The translations under genes and the position numbers were made by a program. The notes under the pieces are model-generated. The model was not told the DNA's origin, did not search any database, and was given only the letters and a program-made list of their open reading frames with translations. Below, in pieces: positions 2,604-10,018 of a DNA stretch of 11,052 nucleotides (the first letter of the stretch is position 1; each line of letters starts with the position of its first letter). Source of the stretch: Promethearchaeota archaeon (GTDB lineage: Archaea > Asgardarchaeota > Lokiarchaeia > Sigyniarchaeales > SOKP01); contig JBHLNT010000138.1 of assembly GCA_048941265.1 (NCBI GenBank), positions 1-11,052 on the forward strand. Reading direction: 5' to 3'.

Positions 2604-2802
2604 GAAGAAATACATGTAATTATACTTTAATCTACCCTTGTCAGAATTATCAATCACGTTTAACTTTATAAAATTTATGCAATAGATTTTATATTAAGGT
2701 GATATGTTAACATAATACATTATACACTCCCATCTTAAAAAGTTAAGTCTCCAAATTGAAGCTTTATAAATGATTTAAATAAACATATGGAAATCTAATA
2801 AT

Positions 2803-2820
2803 AAGAAAAAAAAGAAAAGA
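2803..2820 (-). terminator. Oligo-U tract terminator of the histone gene
   Basis: Minus strand TCTTTTCTTTTTTTTCTT about 30 nt after the histone TAA (2851); typical archaeal U-tract terminator. Confidence 0.6.
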
Positions 2821-2850
2821 TTATGAATTATTTTTTTTGATTTGACTTGC

Positions 2851-3092
2851 TTAGATTAATTTCATTGCCAAGTCCATATCCTCTAAAGTTAATTTCTTTC
2901 TTCCGGCGTGTCGGGTCATTTCAAGGGCTTTGTTGGTTACATTTTTGGCTGTTTTCTCTAAATAATCAATTAAGGCATCAACAGCATCTCTGGCAACCAT
3001 TTCAGCACCATTGTCTTTCATCAACTTACGAACTGGACTCCAGGCAAATTTAAAGAGAATTTGCGAAGTGCTAATCTTACCTTCTTTGCCAT
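2851..3092 (-). CDS. Archaeal histone (HMf-like histone fold), proposed spliced CDS join(3092..3079,3049..2851), 70 aa: MAKKVFAWSPVRKLMKDNGAEMVARDAVDALIDYLEKTAKNVTNKALEMTRHAGRKKLTLEDMDLAMKLI
   Basis: Histone-fold signature PVRKLMK..GAEMVARDA..HAGRKKLTLEDM (equivalents of HMfB R10, H49, R52, K53, D59). The histone identity is near certain; the exon structure is inferred from the BHB motif (14+199=213 nt=70 codons+stop). The ORF track alternative is an unspliced 83-aa ORF from ATG 3102. Confidence 0.9.
3050..3078 (-). other. Putative 29-nt bulge-helix-bulge (BHB) intron in histone mRNA: AAGAUUAGCACUUCGCAAAUUCUCUUUAA
   Basis: Exon helix GGCAAA(3090..3085)/UUUGCC(3048..3043); 4-bp central helix GAAG(3084..3081)/CUUU(3055..3052) with one G-U; 3-nt bulges GUA(3080..3078) and AAA(3051..3049); intron helix AGA/UCU extended by UU/AA and GC/GC around loop ACUUC. 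Cleavage after the 2nd nt of each bulge removes 29 nt and restores the frame. Confidence 0.8.
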
Positions 3093-3103
3093 TTTTTATC
3101 ATT

Positions 3104-3108
3104 CCTCC
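3104..3108 (-). promoter_or_regulatory. Shine-Dalgarno GGAGG for the histone gene
   Basis: Minus strand GTGGAGGAATGATAAAAAATGGCA. GGAGG is 1 nt from ATG 3102 (too close) and 11 nt from ATG 3092. Confidence 0.7.
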
Positions 3109-3124
3109 ACTTTATAATTTTTAA

Positions 3125-3177
3125 TAATATTTCATAAAGTTCGTAATTTTTCATTTGAACTTTATTATTTAATATTA
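3125..3177. repeat. Interrupted inverted repeat in the histone upstream/5'UTR region
   Basis: ATAAAGTTC(3134..3142)/GAACTTTAT(3157..3165) perfect 9-bp arms with a 14-nt spacer, flanked by TAATATT(3125..3131)/AATATTA(3171..3177). Confidence 0.6.
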
Positions 3178-3188
3178 CTTCTTTCAAA

Positions 3189-3197
3189 TATTTAAAA
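3189..3197 (-). promoter_or_regulatory. Candidate TATA box of the histone gene (possibly bidirectional)
   Basis: Minus strand TTTTAAATA would put the TSS near 3165-3170; plus strand reads TTTAAAAG from 3191. The AT-rich background makes this weak. Confidence 0.4.
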
Positions 3198-3216
3198 GTT
3201 ATGTAAAATTCTCGAT

Positions 3217-3351
3217 ATGATATGTTTGGGTTAATAATTTCGTCCGAATATCCAAATTGCGAAGTCTGAGAAGAAAAGCGGCTGAGATAGTTCTGAGCCT
3301 TTAGATCAGAGATCTCTATCTAACTTATATCGCTTGATATCATTACGCTGA
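3217..3351 (+). ncRNA. Candidate structured small RNA (boundaries approximate)
   Basis: Locally GC-richer non-coding island with a three-part hairpin: AAGCGG(3276..3281)/TCGCTT(3330..3335), AGATAG(3285..3290)/CTATCT(3316..3321), TTCTGA(3291..3296)/TCAGAG(3306..3311). Two G-U pairs work only on the + strand. Four CTGA motifs (3266, 3282, 3293, 3348). No family recognised. Confidence 0.3.
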
Positions 3352-3610
3352 ATTACCAAGCTAAAACGTGGAACAATCATAAGAATATTATCATAATAAT
3401 TGATTTGGGTTATCTTATGATATTTTACCAACTATTAATTATTATTTATTCCTAATTATTAAATTTAATGGAGCATTAGTGATATTTTACCTATTAGACT
3501 TGTGAATTTTCATTGATTTAGATTCTACTAAAAACTTTTTACGATATTCCTAATGGTTCTTTAATTACCTGCCATAATATAATCTCGACTAGAAGAAATT
3601 ATGTTTTTTT

Positions 3611-3618: not shown

Positions 3619-3639
3619 TATTGAGTTTAGTTGATACCG

Positions 3640-4464
3640 ATGCCGACTTTAAGGATTTACTATGATGCATTTTTTGATGCTGAATTAGAAGATATTGAAA
3701 AAAAAATAGAAACACAGTCAGCATACTTTAATGAGAAATACGATTTGCTTCAATCGGGTTTTTATAATAAAAGTAGTATTCTTCAGCAAGTTTTAGAAAG
3801 TTATTATGTAGCTAATTATATTGATAAAGGAAGTAAATCAATACCATCTATTAATTCAGAATTAGCCTACTTTAATTTTGTTGAAGGTAATAGTGAATCG
3901 GAGGAAAAAATATTTCCAATTCTAATAAAATTAATATTTAACAAAAAATTTGGAATTTTATGTTTTTATAGCAAGCAAATAATACGAAATCGAGAGGCAA
4001 ATGCCCTCATTAGAAAGTTACAAACCAAATACGGTTTTAACTTTAAATTCTCGCTTGTTAATAATCATCATGTTTTTAGGAGGAATGAGCTAAATGTGTT
4101 CTTAAATGTTCTAGATATAAGTGATTTTACCGCCATATCTGTGTATGATGCAGATAATGAATTAATTGTTAAGAATACCACTACTCTCACTAAAACAAAA
4201 AAGGTATTGCTTTTTCTTGATGAGGTATTTAGTGGAAATTGGTCTTATGTAAGATTAATTAATGCAAAATTGGAATTCGAAATTCGTTTAAGTAATAATA
4301 AAACACAAAATTATCTTACATTTGAAAATAAGTATATTGATGATATTCATTTAGTTAAAGTTATAGACTATTTAACTAAAAAGATTAAGGAAGCAGAAAA
4401 AGCTTCCGTGTTAAATGAAAAAAAACAAACTTGCTTAGATTATTATCAAAAATTAGTTGTATAA
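3640..4464 (+). CDS. Hypothetical protein (274 aa) with C-terminal PIP-box-like motif
   Basis: Long open frame with globular alpha/beta-like composition. ATG 3640 is preferred over TTG 3631 from TATA spacing. Ends ...NEKKQTCLDYYQKLVV. No family recognised. Confidence 0.8.
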   Translation: MPTLRIYYDAFFDAELEDIEKKIETQSAYFNEKYDLLQSGFYNKSSILQQVLESYYVANYIDKGSKSIPSINSELAYFNFVEGNSESEEKIFPILIKLIFNKKFGILCFYSKQIIRNREANALIRKLQTKYGFNFKFSLVNNHHVFRRNELNVFLNVLDISDFTAISVYDADNELIVKNTTTLTKTKKVLLFLDEVFSGNWSYVRLINAKLEFEIRLSNNKTQNYLTFENKYIDDIHLVKVIDYLTKKIKEAEKASVLNEKKQTCLDYYQKLVV

Positions 4465-4468
4465 TTTT

Positions 4469-7400
4469 TTATTCAATACGATTTATATCTTCTTGGATGC
4501 TATTAAAAACTATCTTAAGCAAGACTTCTTCTGCTTTATTGTAGGTCACAGGTAAAATTTGATTATTTGTCCAAAATTGATAGGATTCCATGAACTTAGT
4601 TAGAGTTTCTGTTGATTTTACAGCGGTTAAAGCTTCATGATATTTTTGAAAATATTTTTCCAATGGATTGAATTCTTCAATGACCTCATCTGGTTGTTCA
4701 ATTGGAATATGTGCTAAAAATTCTTCCTTATATAAAATAATCTTATCATATCCTTCCCGCATCCTTTCAATGTGTTCCATGAAATTTTGATCACTTATAA
4801 ATTTATTAAGTCGTTCGGTCGAAATTTCTCGTGCTTTTTCTATATCATATGATTCCCCTGGTGAAATTAAATTCTTTTCCTTTAGTCCTCTGACCAGTTC
4901 TAAAATTTTATCAAATTCATTCGTAAAATCCCCAATCTTTTCAAAATATGAGGGAAAAATAGCAGGGAGATTTGGATTAATATTTTTAATGATTTCTGTG
5001 AAAGTTAGCAATTCTTTTGCAAACAATATTCTTGAATCTATGATTGGCATACATTTATTTGCTTCGATTATAAGGTCATCCATCAAGCTGAATTTTAACA
5101 TATCGGATTTTTGTTGATCGAGCATACTTTTAAGCCTTATCATTTTTTCTGAATCTTCTGATTCTCCTTCTGAGACCGAACTTTGAATATCTTGATGTAA
5201 TTGTTCGATATTCATTGTATATTCTCTTCGTTTTAATTTGCTAAGAAAGAATTCCAATGATTTCACTTTTATAAACTCTTTATGCTCTTCAAGGAAGTTT
5301 TCAATAAGCTCAAAAGTTTTTTGAAGCGGTTCATACAAATACTTGAGGATATAAATGAATACTAAGCGATCAGCTATCGTAATTTTATTATCATAGAATC
5401 TGGTCAATTCTAAATTATCATACAAATCAAATAACATTTCAAAGAATTCCTTTAGTAAATCTCGGTTTTTAACAGCATCGAGGGGAGTTTCTTCTGATTC
5501 TTTAAGATAATTTTTATTAAAGTTGCGAACCGAATCAATATAATAATATAAGGCACTTAAATTTCCTAAAGTATTTAAACGCCTGATGTATTCGAGAAAT
5601 TCCTTTCCGATATCGTTTAGTGGACTGACATCTTCGAACATATCAACAAATAATTCCGGATAATCCTTTTTAGATATATCAAATGTTTTAATATAATATC
5701 CTTTGAGCGTCAATATAGGGATGATCGATCTTATGGTCATAACTCTTCTCATTATTGCCTTTAAATCTTCTTGCACAATTGCTAAAATTTGCTCATTTAG
5801 TTTTCCTCTTTTATCATCTATAGCAAATTCTCGTTCTTTTAATAATTGTTTTAACTTGATGGCTCGAACCATTGAATTACGCCCGCCATAAATTTCAATA
5901 TAAATTTTAGCTAAGATCATTATGGCCACCGACCCCGTAAGCATCTTATCTGATTTTTTACTTTTAAGAATTTGGCGGGTTAACAAATTCATTAACCGAA
6001 TTGTAAAGAGTTTATCATCATCACGAGGCAATTCATCGATTTTTTGATGAAAGTCTTCTAATATTTTTTGTTTAGGATATGAATTTTCCCATAGTTGATC
6101 GAAAATTTTATTTCCCTCTTCATTCTCTAAAATTTCTAAAAACCGAGGAATTATCGTATTGATAGCGTTAGCCCACTTATAATGTTCTTCAAACACAGGA
6201 AATTCAGAACGAAATTCTTCAATTAATGTATGTACATTAGGGGCTTCTTCAATAGTTTTAGGGCCTTCATATTTACCAAGAGTATAATCAACAATATCAT
6301 CGAAAGTAGGAGTTCTCGATTTTATGGGGGTAGGCCTTTCTATTTCAAGAAACAATTGATATAATTCAAATAAATTTCTGCATTTTCGTTTAGAACGGTT
6401 AATTACATATTGATTAATTTCTTCTTGACTTAACTCATTAACATCTATCAAGGAACGTGTAAACATTAATGATCTAGTTAAAATCTTTTCAATTTCTTTT
6501 GATTCTAAATTTCCCATTGTTTCAGAATATTTAGTTAAAAATCTCGCTATATCAGAGCCTAAATATGAACCATGTTCTTCGGGGATTTCAGAAATAGCCT
6601 CCAACAGATCATTTATAAATGTCTGTGCCTTGACTTCACCTAGTTGTCTAATATATTTTTCTTCTGCTCGCTTTAAAAATCCCCCGACATCAGTGAATTT
6701 TTTGCGTTTCTCTTCAGAGCCAAGAATATGGGTAATAACATCTTCTAAATTCTGAGATGACTGAAGTAAATTACCTTCCTTAGCCATATCTAAGAATGCT
6801 GTAAATAAATCGATCAATCCGCTCATTTTATTCTTACTTCTTCTAATAATTTCTTGATCAACTTGTTTTCGATTCATTCCATTAACATCAGAAAGAGATT
6901 GCGCAAATATGAGAATATGCTTTAAAATATTTCCTAATACCTCGGGATAAAAACGAAAAGTGTCTTCTGAGAATTTGAATACATATTTTGCAATTTCAGA
7001 ATCAGCAGTACCTTTAAAATCATCAACGATATTTTTTAAAGCTTTATTAACTTCTTCTGAGAACTCTGCTGCTTTATCATTCCCAATCTTTTGAGTAAAA
7101 TTTTCTGCAGATCTCTTAATAAATAATTCAAATTCTTCAAATTTAGCAATTTCAATGGATTCACCAACTGTAAAACTAATAATATCTTCAAACCGTTCAG
7201 AACCTTTCAATATTTCGCCATTTTCAGCTTTTGCTACAAATCTTTGTAATAAATCTGATAAATTACGTATTTCGGATTTACTTCTAATTATTAGATTTTG
7301 ATTTACTTGCTTTACATTCTGATTGGCAAGATCTTGAAGTGAGTTAGTGAACATTAAAAAATGATTCAAAATTCCCTCAACATATACATCCGGTATCTTT

Positions 7401-7573
7401 TCTAATCCTTGAGAATATTTGAACAAAAATTTTGTGATTTCTGGTCCAATACTCCCACTATATTCTCCTGGGATTAGATAAAGTGATTTTTTAAGCTGAT
7501 CGAAAATTATTTGTGTTTTTTCTCCAATCTTTTCGTTAAACGGATTTTCTGCTCGCTTTAGAAAAATTTCCAT
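4469..7573 (-). CDS. Large hypothetical, predicted mostly alpha-helical protein (1034 aa) with three N-terminal ~148-aa repeats
   Basis: 3.1-kb ORF, E/K/L/I/F-rich amphipathic pattern, no catalytic motif recognised. Convergent with the 3640..4464 CDS, 4 nt between stops. Confidence 0.9.
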   Translation of the reverse strand: MEIFLKRAENPFNEKIGEKTQIIFDQLKKSLYLIPGEYSGSIGPEITKFLFKYSQGLEKIPDVYVEGILNHFLMFTNSLQDLANQNVKQVNQNLIIRSKSEIRNLSDLLQRFVAKAENGEILKGSERFEDIISFTVGESIEIAKFEEFELFIKRSAENFTQKIGNDKAAEFSEEVNKALKNIVDDFKGTADSEIAKYVFKFSEDTFRFYPEVLGNILKHILIFAQSLSDVNGMNRKQVDQEIIRRSKNKMSGLIDLFTAFLDMAKEGNLLQSSQNLEDVITHILGSEEKRKKFTDVGGFLKRAEEKYIRQLGEVKAQTFINDLLEAISEIPEEHGSYLGSDIARFLTKYSETMGNLESKEIEKILTRSLMFTRSLIDVNELSQEEINQYVINRSKRKCRNLFELYQLFLEIERPTPIKSRTPTFDDIVDYTLGKYEGPKTIEEAPNVHTLIEEFRSEFPVFEEHYKWANAINTIIPRFLEILENEEGNKIFDQLWENSYPKQKILEDFHQKIDELPRDDDKLFTIRLMNLLTRQILKSKKSDKMLTGSVAIMILAKIYIEIYGGRNSMVRAIKLKQLLKEREFAIDDKRGKLNEQILAIVQEDLKAIMRRVMTIRSIIPILTLKGYYIKTFDISKKDYPELFVDMFEDVSPLNDIGKEFLEYIRRLNTLGNLSALYYYIDSVRNFNKNYLKESEETPLDAVKNRDLLKEFFEMLFDLYDNLELTRFYDNKITIADRLVFIYILKYLYEPLQKTFELIENFLEEHKEFIKVKSLEFFLSKLKRREYTMNIEQLHQDIQSSVSEGESEDSEKMIRLKSMLDQQKSDMLKFSLMDDLIIEANKCMPIIDSRILFAKELLTFTEIIKNINPNLPAIFPSYFEKIGDFTNEFDKILELVRGLKEKNLISPGESYDIEKAREISTERLNKFISDQNFMEHIERMREGYDKIILYKEEFLAHIPIEQPDEVIEEFNPLEKYFQKYHEALTAVKSTETLTKFMESYQFWTNNQILPVTYNKAEEVLLKIVFNSIQEDINRIE
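6275..7573 (-). repeat. Three diverged intragenic tandem repeats, period 147-148 aa
   Basis: FLKRA/FIKRS/FLKRA at aa 4/151/299; EITKFLFKYS/EIAKYVFKFS/DIARFLTKYS; LMFTNSL/LIFAQSL/LMFTRSL; IIRSK/IRRSK/INRSK; FEDIISFTVG/LEDVITHILG/FDDIVDYTLG ending at aa 137/285/433. Residual DNA identity TTCTGCTCGCTTTA at 6662..6675 and 7547..7560. Confidence 0.9.
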
Positions 7574-7708: not shown

Positions 7709-8773
7709 ATGAAAAAAAAAATCGCTATAACTAAAGGCGATGGAATAGGACCTGAAGTTGTAGAAGAGGGCATCAAGATATTGAAAGTTATTTCTGACTA
7801 TACTGAATTTGAATTTGAATTAATAGAAGCACCTGCGGGAGGAAATGTCTGGAAAGAAACGGGAATAAATATGCCTGAAAAATCATGGGATGTAATTATA
7901 AATTCTGATGCCTTATTGTTCGGCGCAATCGGTATTCCTGGATTACCTCAAGGTATAGCAGAGTCTGCCATCTTTAAAATTAGGCAAGAGCTAGATTTAT
8001 ACGTGAATTTAAGACCAATTAAGTTATTTGATGCTTTGAAAGATAGATGCCCTTTAAAGGAGGAATACATAGGAAAAGGGATTGATATGACAATTGTTAG
8101 AGAAAATACAGAGGGATTATATAAAAAAATTGGAGAACTCAATGATGATGAAGCACATAATATAATGAGATATACAAGAAAAGGTTGTGAGCGTATTATT
8201 AAATATGCATTTGAATATGCAAAAAAAAATAGTCATAACAAGGTGACTTCAGTGGATAAAGCAAATTTACTAAATCCAAGCCAACTATGGCGTAAAATTT
8301 TTCATGAAATTGGTTCAGATTATCCAGATATAAAGAAGGAGGATATTTATGTCGATGCCTTTTGTCAATGGCTTATTCGAAAACCTTATGATTTTCAAAC
8401 AGTAGTTACTGGTAATATGTTTGGAGATATTATTAGTGATGAGGCAGCATTTCTGATTGGAAGCCTAGGGATGGCTTCAAGTGGAAATATCCATCCAAGA
8501 AAAGTGTCTATGTACGAACCAATACATGGATCTGCTCCAGATATAGCAGGAAAAGGTATAGCAAACCCAATTGGCACTATTTTAAGCGTAAAGCTTATGA
8601 TGCAAGAATCGTTTAATCAACCCAAACTCGGAGATGAGATTGAATATGCGGTTGAGGAAGCGTTAAATGAAGCTAGAACTGCTGATATAAAAAATCCAAA
8701 TTTAAAAACTCTTTCGACTAAGGAAATGGGAAATTTAATTTCAGAAAAATTGAAAATACATTTAAAAAAATAA
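7709..8773 (+). CDS. leuB: 3-isopropylmalate dehydrogenase (isocitrate/isopropylmalate dehydrogenase family), NAD-type
   Basis: [28 protein letters not shown] (Glu equivalent to T. thermophilus IPMDH E87 plus substrate Args), [40 protein letters not shown] (NAD-specifying Asp). The family is certain; the exact substrate is inferred. Confidence 0.8.
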   Translation: MKKKIAITKGDGIGPEVVEEGIKILKVISDYTEFEFELIEAPAGGNVWKETGINMPEKSWDVIINSDALLFGAIGIPGLPQGIAESAIFKIRQELDLYVNLRPIKLFDALKDRCPLKEEYIGKGIDMTIVRENTEGLYKKIGELNDDEAHNIMRYTRKGCERIIKYAFEYAKKNSHNKVTSVDKANLLNPSQLWRKIFHEIGSDYPDIKKEDIYVDAFCQWLIRKPYDFQTVVTGNMFGDIISDEAAFLIGSLGMASSGNIHPRKVSMYEPIHGSAPDIAGKGIANPIGTILSVKLMMQESFNQPKLGDEIEYAVEEALNEARTADIKNPNLKTLSTKEMGNLISEKLKIHLKK

Positions 8774-8857: not shown

Positions 8858-10018
8858 ATGGCAACCTATAAAATAGTAGTGCTAGCAGGTGACGGAATTG
8901 GTCCTGAAGTAATAGCAGAGACTTTGAAAGTATTACATGTAATTGAAGAAATTTCCAATAATATAAACTTTGAGTTCATAAAATATGATTGTGGTGGACA
9001 GTACTGGCTAAAGACAAATAAAAAGGAAGAATGGCCAGTAGAGGCATATGAAACGTGTAAAAATGAATCAGATGCAATCTTATTAGGTGCAATTGGCTGG
9101 ACCGATCCTGCTACAGGCAAAACCGTTTCTTATCCGGACGGAAAGATGGTCGGTCTTGAAGTTCTTTTTGGATTAAGATTTGGCTTAGATCTCTATGCGA
9201 ACATACGCCCCACTAAACTATATGAGGGTGTTCAACATCAAATCTCAGGGGAGTTTCGGCAAATCTGGAAACCTGAAAATGTTGATTTCGTATCGATTCG
9301 AGAAAATACAGAAGGATTATATGCCGATACGCATGGATATTTAAATAGAAATCAAAAAATAGAAATTGCAACGGATTGCAGGTTAATTACGAGAAAAGGT
9401 TCTGAGAGAGTGATTACCTTCGCTTTTGAATATTGTAAAAGACGAAATAAAGGTTCTCCTAAAGATGGAAAACTTCGAGTTACTTGTGTAGATAAGAGTA
9501 ATGTGACCGCTGGTTGCAAATTATTCAGAATGATTTACCAAGAAATTGCTCCAAAATATCCTAATATACAAGAAGATTATGCTTTCATCGATGCTTTTAC
9601 CCAATGGATTATCCGCACTCCGGAATGGTTTGATGTATGTGTTATCCCAAATATGTTCGGTGATATTGCTACAGACCTTGCAGCAGTTCTTCAAGGGAGC
9701 TTAGGAATGGCAGCTAGCGGAAATGTGGGGGATAGATACGGTATGTTTGAACCTATACACGGTTCTGCGCCAAAACATGCCGGAAAAAACAGGATAAACC
9801 CAATAGCAACAATTTCAGCAACTCAAATGATGTTAGATTGGTTATCAATGAAAAATGGTAATGATCCGCATTTAAAAAAAAGTGCTAATTTAATTGAAAA
9901 AGCGATTGAATTGATACTAAAAGAGGGTAAAGTTAGAACCTATGATCTGGGTGGATCCTCAAGCACTTCTGACGTTGGAGATGCAATATCCCAAAAAATA
10001 AAAGAAATTGCATCATAA
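8858..10018 (+). CDS. Isocitrate/isopropylmalate/tartrate dehydrogenase family protein, NADP-type signature, substrate uncertain
   Basis: [64 protein letters not shown]. Confidence 0.9.

Follow-up and report, generated by a model that had tools for sequence, protein, structure and literature searches.

A probable bulge-helix-bulge mRNA intron in a histone gene of an Asgard archaeon

The histone gene and its predicted intron

The stretch of DNA analysed here (the window) is a contig of 11,052 nucleotides (nt) from a Promethearchaeota archaeon of the Lokiarchaeia (GenBank assembly GCA_048941265.1, contig JBHLNT010000138.1), whose genome is called G000 below; all coordinates are window positions. 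On its minus strand, at 2851..3092, lies a gene for a 70-residue archaeal histone that is interrupted in its fifth codon by 29 nt. We consider it highly likely that this insertion is a genuine bulge-helix-bulge (BHB) intron of the mRNA, as a first reading of the letters of the window had proposed. The decisive evidence is comparative and consists of orthologues that lack the insertion, alleles that carry one at the same site, selection on the encoded protein, covariation in the predicted helices and frozen codons in the first exon. If this is right, the cells very probably must splice the mRNA to make this chromatin protein.

The gene is read on the minus strand throughout. A Shine-Dalgarno sequence, GGAGG, stands at 3104..3108, 11 nt 5' of the ATG at 3092 and 1 nt 5' of another ATG at 3102 (3100..3102), and the same arrangement, GTGGAGGAAT...ATGGC, precedes the starts of the intronless orthologues. 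Exon 1 would extend over 3079..3092 (ATG GCA AAG AAG GT, which encodes M A K K and supplies the first two bases of V5) and exon 2 over 2851..3049, consisting of the third V5 base, then FAWSPVRKLMKDNG...AMKLI and the stop codon (2851..2853), and holding the histone fold. Without splicing, ATG 3092 reads MAKKVRLALRKFSLNLPGVQFVS, a 23-amino-acid (aa) peptide (3021..3092) whose first five codons (ATG GCA AAG AAG GTA) give MAKKV before it departs from the histone frame and ends at the TGA at 3023..3021. The upstream ATG 3102 is by chance in the frame of exon 2 through the intron and opens an 83-aa open reading frame (ORF) at 2851..3102; it is the start that gene callers would pick, while its real use is unlikely. 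The Pfam model PF00808 matched this ORF with an E-value of 4.1e-12 and 46.6 bits, against a cut-off of 21.4, over residues 22-80, which identifies the product as an archaeal histone of the HMf-type fold with its length of about 65-70 residues. A T-rich run 3' of the stop codon (2800..2823) is a likely archaeal terminator.

A complete hBHBh' motif, with outer, central and inner helices, two bulges and an apical hairpin, can be read on the minus strand at 3043..3090. The outer helix of 6 base pairs (bp), GGCAAA/UUUGCC, pairs 3090..3085 with 3048..3043; the central 4-bp helix, GAAG/CUUU, pairs 3084..3081 with 3055..3052; the two 3-nt bulges, GUA (3080..3078) and AAA (3051..3049), lie on opposite strands; and the inner helix, AGA/UCU, joins 3077..3075 with 3058..3056 below the apical hairpin GC-ACUUC-GC. 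The window thus holds the bulges, the four-pair central helix and both flanking helices h and h'. All the elements named in the original prediction are present, and our reading of the minus strand confirmed its coordinates, including the stop at 3021. Cuts between the second and third base of each bulge define a predicted intron of 29 nt at 3050..3078, and removal of 3078..3050 brings ATG 3092 into the reading frame of the histone fold. The exact structure first proposed comes to -7.7 kcal/mol, 2.1 kcal/mol above the minimum free energy (MFE) of -9.8, and the local MFE fold has the same overall shape as the BHB. An Rfam search of 2700..3400 returned no match at E <= 1. The outer helix begins at the G of the AUG, and once the RNA was spliced its two halves would sit just 7 nt apart. 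Because the outer helix begins at this G, the unspliced transcript may be poorly translated.

In the mechanism that we propose, the mRNA would carry the intron between bases 2 and 3 of codon 5, and exon 1 (GGCAAAGAAG) would pair both with CUUU, at the intron's 3' end, and with UUUGCC, where exon 2 begins, to give a canonical BHB. A heterotetrameric (alpha-beta)2 splicing endonuclease, EndA, would cut between bases 2 and 3 of each 3-nt bulge, and the ligase RtcB would join the exons, the intron probably being circularised. Joining would then set ATG 3092 in frame with the histone fold. From the sequences we infer both that cutting and joining take place and that EndA and RtcB perform them.

Alleles with and without the insertion

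A protein search retrieved 205 relatives, of which the best 120 were listed and 46 sequences were read. They come from Asgard metagenome-assembled genomes labelled Lokiarchaeota, Promethearchaeota or Hodarchaeota, which agrees with the Asgard origin that had been judged probable from the letters of the window, and those that bear a name are called histone. Most of the best 120 of the 205 have 70 aa, and their alignment with the 83-aa ORF begins only at its residue 19. The majority of the 46 sequences read start with MAKKVFAWSP(V/I)RKLMKDNG, which is exactly the predicted junction of exon 1 and exon 2; the remainder have the same stretch behind an extension from an upstream start, show a close variant of it, bear an insertion or are truncated. 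At the DNA level, in contigs from one genome per species, the gene is uninterrupted in 52 of 66 loci, and there ATGGCNAARAARGTN directly adjoins TTYGCNTGG behind the GTGGAGGAAT Shine-Dalgarno context. Exon 2 of the window is 92-98% identical to the intronless orthologues. Excision of 3078..3050 therefore yields both the frame and the N-terminus of the intronless orthologues, and the 70-aa histone expected from the splicing rule is the protein that the relatives encode without splicing. The public databases contain insertion-bearing 'histones' of 74 to 87 aa, which show that gene callers mis-annotate such genes.

The first exon is variable among the intronless alleles (n=53), with 17 versions of it. 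One of them, L022 (about 1486-1509), is the sole intronless allele with the codons GCA AAG AAG beside TTTGCC, and it is possibly the footprint of a precise intron loss. Upstream of the gene, at 3136-3152 on the minus strand and about 45-60 nt 5' of the start, GAAAAATTACGAACTTT is a candidate promoter or regulatory element; the motif GAAAAATGTGAACTTT and its variants, which match it, occur at the same distance upstream in many orthologous histone loci.

We refer to the position of the insertion in the window as site A. A pattern search for the site with 21-51 extra bases matched five of 400 genomes of the phylum, and its reversed-pattern control matched once. The five are G000 (genus g1) and G185, G188, G190 and G198 (genus g11), all of one family. 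A pattern scan of metagenomes added three more, L087, L073 and L170: among the matches listed, three of 120 stretches were histone loci, and these have the site-A insertion. The eight distinct alleles (window, G185, G188, G190, G198, L087, L073 and L170) have insertions of 29, 29, 32, 29, 32, 29, 30 and 31 nt, respectively. These lengths leave every possible remainder on division by 3, which shows that the insertion is not retained as coding sequence and that no fixed frameshift could read through it. In six of the eight alleles, a stop upstream of F6 closes the histone frame, and between the two there is no ATG, GTG or TTG. The two exceptions are the window, through ATG 3102, and L073, in which an in-frame insertion of 30 nt is followed by a second, frame-breaking insertion downstream. 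G188 has two copies of the orthologue on one contig, 249 kb apart (G188:C1:1223035-1223223 and 1472154-1472342), and one of them carries the site-A intron.

The protein encoded behind the insertion is conserved. Over codons 6-57 of the seven intron-bearing alleles with enough of exon 2, synonymous differences (pS) amounted to 0.589 and non-synonymous differences (pN) to 0.041, a ratio of 0.069, indicating that exon 2 is under strong purifying selection. The stretch FAWSP(V/I)RKL, which lies upstream of the first internal methionine, is kept despite changes in its codons, such as Ser AGT/TCT, Pro CCA/CCT, Arg CGA/CGC/CGT and Leu TTG/CTA/TTA. A stretch retained while its codons vary must be translated, and in six alleles this needs the removal of the insertion first. 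The identity of exon 2 at the DNA level, used as a test of gain versus loss, did not discriminate between the two: the window is 84-88% alike both to intronless alleles of the same genus and to intron-bearing alleles of the other genus.

Exon 1 behaves in the opposite way. ATGGCAAAGAAGGTA is identical in all eight intron-bearing alleles, whereas its codons GCA AAG AAG occur in just one of the 53 intronless ones (L022). None of the four degenerate exon-1 codons varies among the eight, as opposed to 36 of the 42 codons for conserved residues in exon 2 of seven alleles, or 35 of 40 when codons 6-7, which also pair, are left aside. A hypergeometric estimate on these counts is about 0.001, ignoring the relatedness of the alleles. 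The lone change in the paired part of exon 2, GCC to GCU in L073, retains a G-U pair.

This pattern is what would be expected of constraint on an RNA structure, and the pairing itself was followed in an alignment of the eight sequences. Across its 15 pairs, 97.5% of the 120 cells are standard pairs, and three pairs have changed on both sides, a result equalled by two of 500 shuffles; when the partners were slid by 1-3 columns, pairing fell to 20-56%. The outer 6-bp helix is fully paired in all eight alleles. For the basal inner helix, which was counted outward from the bulges so that insertions and deletions are irrelevant, 29 of 32 cells are canonical against 9-19 of 32 when slid, with AU, UA, GC, CG and UG pairs all represented. 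The BHB geometry is common to all eight alleles, and six of them have four standard pairs in the central helix. Structure rather than sequence is conserved here, among alleles that are related to each other. The alignment of orthologous loci, which had been suggested as a check for intronless alleles and compensatory changes, has thus provided both, in the 53 uninterrupted alleles and the three two-sided changes.

Splicing enzymes and the alternatives to an intron

The genome of the window (5.0 Mb, 91% complete) encodes the enzymes for such a reaction. We found two genes of the EndA family (PF01974, 107 and 69 bits, in ORFs of 201 and 198 aa) and one RtcB gene (PF01139, 569 bits), so both a splicing endonuclease and a ligase are present by gene content. 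By the motif Tyr...His...Lys, which we take to mark the active subunit, the first EndA paralogue appears to be the catalytic one, and the second has the look of a structural subunit. Aragorn detected only 12 tRNA genes in this genome, nine of them with introns, although one of the calls, at 804 nt, is questionable; interruptions probably keep most tRNA genes from being recognised. This agrees with the heavily interrupted tRNA genes described for Asgard archaea in a 2026 preprint (bioRxiv 10.64898/2026.10.13.758758). Asgard EndA is reported to be a broad-specificity (alpha-beta)2 enzyme that cuts relaxed as well as canonical motifs (PMC5829648), and the two paralogues in G000 fit an enzyme of this type.

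Six RNA runs each shared 0.03-0.05 of sampled words, and X15, X19 and X20, together with the DNA run X1, were compared with the gene. A contig of 2023 nt from X1, which may derive from the source sample, spans the intron with 0 mismatches. The RNA-run contigs on the gene belong to intronless relatives, with 27 and 4-6 mismatches, and X20 gave nothing.

Several observations weigh against an intron or temper the evidence for one. The 83-aa read-through ORF from ATG 3102 is open in the window, and therefore in the window alone splicing is not logically required. The fold alone is not special (z = -1.17, with 26 of 200 shuffles equally good), and in 131 nt of context the BHB motif lies outside the MFE structure; comparison with relatives, and not the window by itself, shows that the motif exceeds chance. 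In several alleles the 5' bulge can pair otherwise (GU with AU), which is favoured over the BHB register by 0.3-3.7 kcal/mol, and the central helix contains a single non-standard pair in G190 (A-G) and in L170 (G-A). Because the intron-bearing alleles are related, the shuffle and slide controls overstate independence and, with it, significance, and shared ancestry may account for part of the freezing of the exon-1 codons. Which EndA paralogue is alpha and which beta is a tentative assignment that depends on the motif assumed above. The RNA contigs are 86-95% alike to the gene, and among them no transcript of this allele, spliced or unspliced, was seen.

The open ORF raises the question of whether the insertion is simply retained, so that translation from ATG 3102 would give an 83-aa protein with an N-terminal tail of 18 residues (MIKNGKEGKISTSQILFK). 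N-terminal tails are known on some Asgard histones, and a comparable read-through N-terminus is found in the database protein P0002. However, ATG 3102 comes only 1 nt past the Shine-Dalgarno sequence, the spacing common to all orthologues being that of ATG 3092, and the equivalent frame is both stop-closed and startless in six of the eight alleles. Insertion lengths of 29-32 nt betray no selection for keeping the frame, and the variation within the supposed tail resembles that of RNA helices rather than of a protein. We therefore regard retention as very unlikely. It is harder still to believe that the interrupted genes are pseudogenes, or that a small insertion element struck copies now in decay, with other histone paralogues doing the work. 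The genome does contain four other histone-fold genes, and G188 combines an interrupted copy with an apparently uninterrupted one. Yet the low pN/pS ratio among the intron-bearing alleles, the persistence of the insertion while most exon-2 codons changed synonymously, the intact promoter-proximal sequence, Shine-Dalgarno sequence and start, and the precise BHB retained by the insertions all speak for working genes; moreover, the interrupted gene is the sole copy of this orthologue in G000 at E <= 1e-22.

Little weight also falls to bypass or removal by other means, be it translational hopping, frameshifting, another RNase or self-cleavage, with the BHB-like fold as merely a hairpin. Such a view would accommodate both the unremarkable fold energy and a class of insertions of about 60 nt in the same gene (site C, below) with no convincing BHB among the matches listed. 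The four different lengths of 29, 30, 31 and 32 nt nevertheless exclude a fixed frameshift, take-off and landing codons do not match (GUA ahead of the insertion, AAA and then UUU behind it), and self-splicing introns are far longer than 29-32 nt. At four sites of the histone gene as well as in the gene for the ribosomal protein uS12, the size of the bulges, the 4-bp spacing and the positions of the cuts obey the EndA rule. The interruption of the histone gene by a BHB intron, the central claim of the original prediction, is thus supported by eight alleles with the same site, six of them without an alternative route to the protein, by covariation, and by the presence of EndA and RtcB genes.

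Further insertions and relation to known systems

With exon 2 as the query, 110 of the 135 genomes of the family were matched at E <= 1e-22, and the odd matches were fetched. Of the 110, 13 carry an insertion: sites A and B account for five genomes each, site C for two and site E for one. Another three odd matches were explained by contig ends or masked bases. Site B, which follows ...HAGRKK, is occupied in L206 (G175), L230 (G232), L231 (G193), L232 (G235), L233 (G247) and L073. Five of these insertions measure 30 nt and contain in-frame stops, and that in the metagenome locus L073 measures 32 nt and shifts the frame. In the site-B BHB, CUUU pairs with AAAG or GAAG, the bulges have 3 nt and the outer helix is weak; the cut rule restores ...HAGRKKLT..., by the scanner in four alleles and by sequence reading only in L206 and L231. 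L073 thus has site-A and site-B introns within one gene of 70 codons. Five relatives in genus g1 have no intron at site A, and one carries site B.

The insertion at site E, between RKL and MKD in L237 (G151; about 275-305), has 30 nt including a TGA; it shows 3-nt bulges and a 10-bp inner helix with no outer helix, and the cut rule restores the protein. Site D, between ARD and AVD in L054 (about 1560-1590), likewise has 30 nt, with two stops; the central helix is CUAG/CUAG, the bulges are AGA and AUA, and the rule, applied by eye to the fold, restores ARDAVD. Site C follows codon 9 (FAWS) in L235 (G180) and L236 (G196), the latter the same as L058, and its insertions of about 60 nt shift the frame. 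A strong outer pairing of 8 bp is predicted there, the downstream residues are TLRK, not PVRK, and among the matches listed no convincing BHB restored the orthologous protein in either (L235, L236/L058).

The inner parts of the site-A and site-B introns resemble each other, with a mean best score of 9.5 against 0.6 in shuffles, none of 500 of which scored as high, and at both sites lysine codons form a similar context (AAG AAR). The resemblance hints at a common origin but no more, as shuffling also destroys the hairpin. The gene for uS12 (PF00164) served for comparison in 61 genomes of the family: 57 were matched, 55 of them uninterrupted, one split over two contigs and one interrupted. The interruption, in L240 (G182:C27:24700-25400, minus strand), is 30 nt long and contains a TAA. 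In its top-scoring BHB the central helix is CUGG/CUAG, the inner helix has 9 bp and the bulges are AGU and AGA; cutting gives AFLPGDGALNF, identical to the intronless G199. The BHB introns in coding genes of this family are therefore not confined to the histone. The histone gene seems richer in insertions than uS12, a rough comparison given that the samples differ and that the profile hidden Markov model is blind to the N-terminus.

A genome-wide scan of G000 for BHB motifs whose removal fuses ORFs found no enrichment over offset cuts: of 8922 geometric candidates, 118 fused ORFs at the true cut against 115-133 at offset cuts, and under stricter limits 17 against 14-24. The intron hairpin with its CUUUAAA motif had six matches elsewhere in G000 and four when reversed, which gives no indication of dispersed copies. 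Insertions at five or more positions of the histone gene, four of them BHB, and site-A and site-B introns that look like copies of each other might suggest that BHB introns have been gained repeatedly in the histone gene of this Lokiarchaeia-type family, making it a hot spot, an idea that we put forward tentatively and with some doubt. Were it true, tRNA-type introns would still be spreading into coding genes (histone, uS12) of the closest archaeal relatives of eukaryotes, and the output of a chromatin protein would depend on EndA and RtcB, with the start codon sequestered in the unspliced transcript.

The nearest precedent is the BHB intron in the cbf5 pre-mRNA of Crenarchaeota (Watanabe 2002; Yoshinari 2006; Yokobori 2009, PMC2738675), where cuts between bulge residues 2 and 3 agreed with cDNA (PMC2738675). 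Like that intron as described there, the histone intron is short, BHB-flanked and located in a protein-coding gene, with cuts predicted between bulge residues 2 and 3; it occurs in a host with a hetero-oligomeric EndA, its removal is needed for the protein, and its patchy presence among relatives implies gain and loss. Unlike cbf5, the interrupted gene is a histone in an Asgard family of the Lokiarchaeia type, and the motif is a canonical hBHBh', whereas the cbf5 introns are mostly relaxed. The position also differs, as the intron falls at codon 5 and the G of the start codon is inside the outer helix, and across the relatives insertions occur at five or more positions of one gene of 70 codons, with a BHB at four. 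Splicing of cbf5 was shown with cDNA, whereas the histone intron is known here from DNA sequence alone.

Among non-coding RNAs, the BHB introns of archaeal tRNA and rRNA, which are processed by EndA and RtcB, agree with the histone intron in geometry (a 4-bp helix with flanking helices and two 3-nt bulges), in size range and in the presumed enzymes, and the genome of the window is rich in tRNA introns; the difference is that the substrate here is an mRNA. The mechanistic resemblance to HAC1/XBP1 splicing in eukaryotes, also raised in the original prediction, holds in outline, since in both a short, frame-changing mRNA intron would be removed by proteins without a spliceosome, and RtcB-type ligation operates in splicing of the HAC1/XBP1 type in metazoans. 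The histone intron is not a member of that system, however. In eukaryotes the kinase-endonuclease IRE1 cuts the twin 7-nt loops of paired stem-loops under stress regulation, whereas the histone intron has a BHB and no indication of regulation.

A full-text literature search, with subscription-only papers outside its scope, found no report of a BHB intron in histone genes or Asgard mRNAs, in line with the first reading, which knew of none in a histone gene. A 2018 paper cites only the cbf5 work (2002-2009) for pre-mRNA, and the reference list of a 2025 paper on EndA has the same three cbf5 papers. As far as these sources extend, protein-coding BHB introns are so far documented essentially for one gene, cbf5, in Crenarchaeota. 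The mechanism is thus known, while the gene, the lineage and several positions are new.

An Asgard chromatin gene that looks essential would thus very probably need protein-only splicing of its mRNA. The intron is polymorphic among close relatives, being present in five of 400 Asgard genomes at site A and in 13 of 110 family members at any site, and it provides a natural series of intron-plus and intron-minus alleles for the study of gain and loss in the lineage nearest to eukaryotes. It also offers a testable case of post-transcriptional control of histone supply. That this supply is coupled to the capacity for tRNA processing by EndA and RtcB, as proposed from the window, is speculation.

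Other genes were noted in the window. Beside the histone gene, a 1034-aa ORF (4469-7573, minus strand) and a 277-aa ORF (3631-4464, plus strand) had no Pfam match at E <= 0.001. At 1-753 on the minus strand lies a gene for a small GTPase of the Ras family (PF00071, 1.4e-37), whose ORF runs off the window and includes an N-terminal extension of about 85 residues with a CPVC...C..H motif. On the plus strand, 7709-8773 and 8858-10018 are adjacent paralogous genes for isocitrate/isopropylmalate dehydrogenases (PF00180, 6e-108 and 3e-84).

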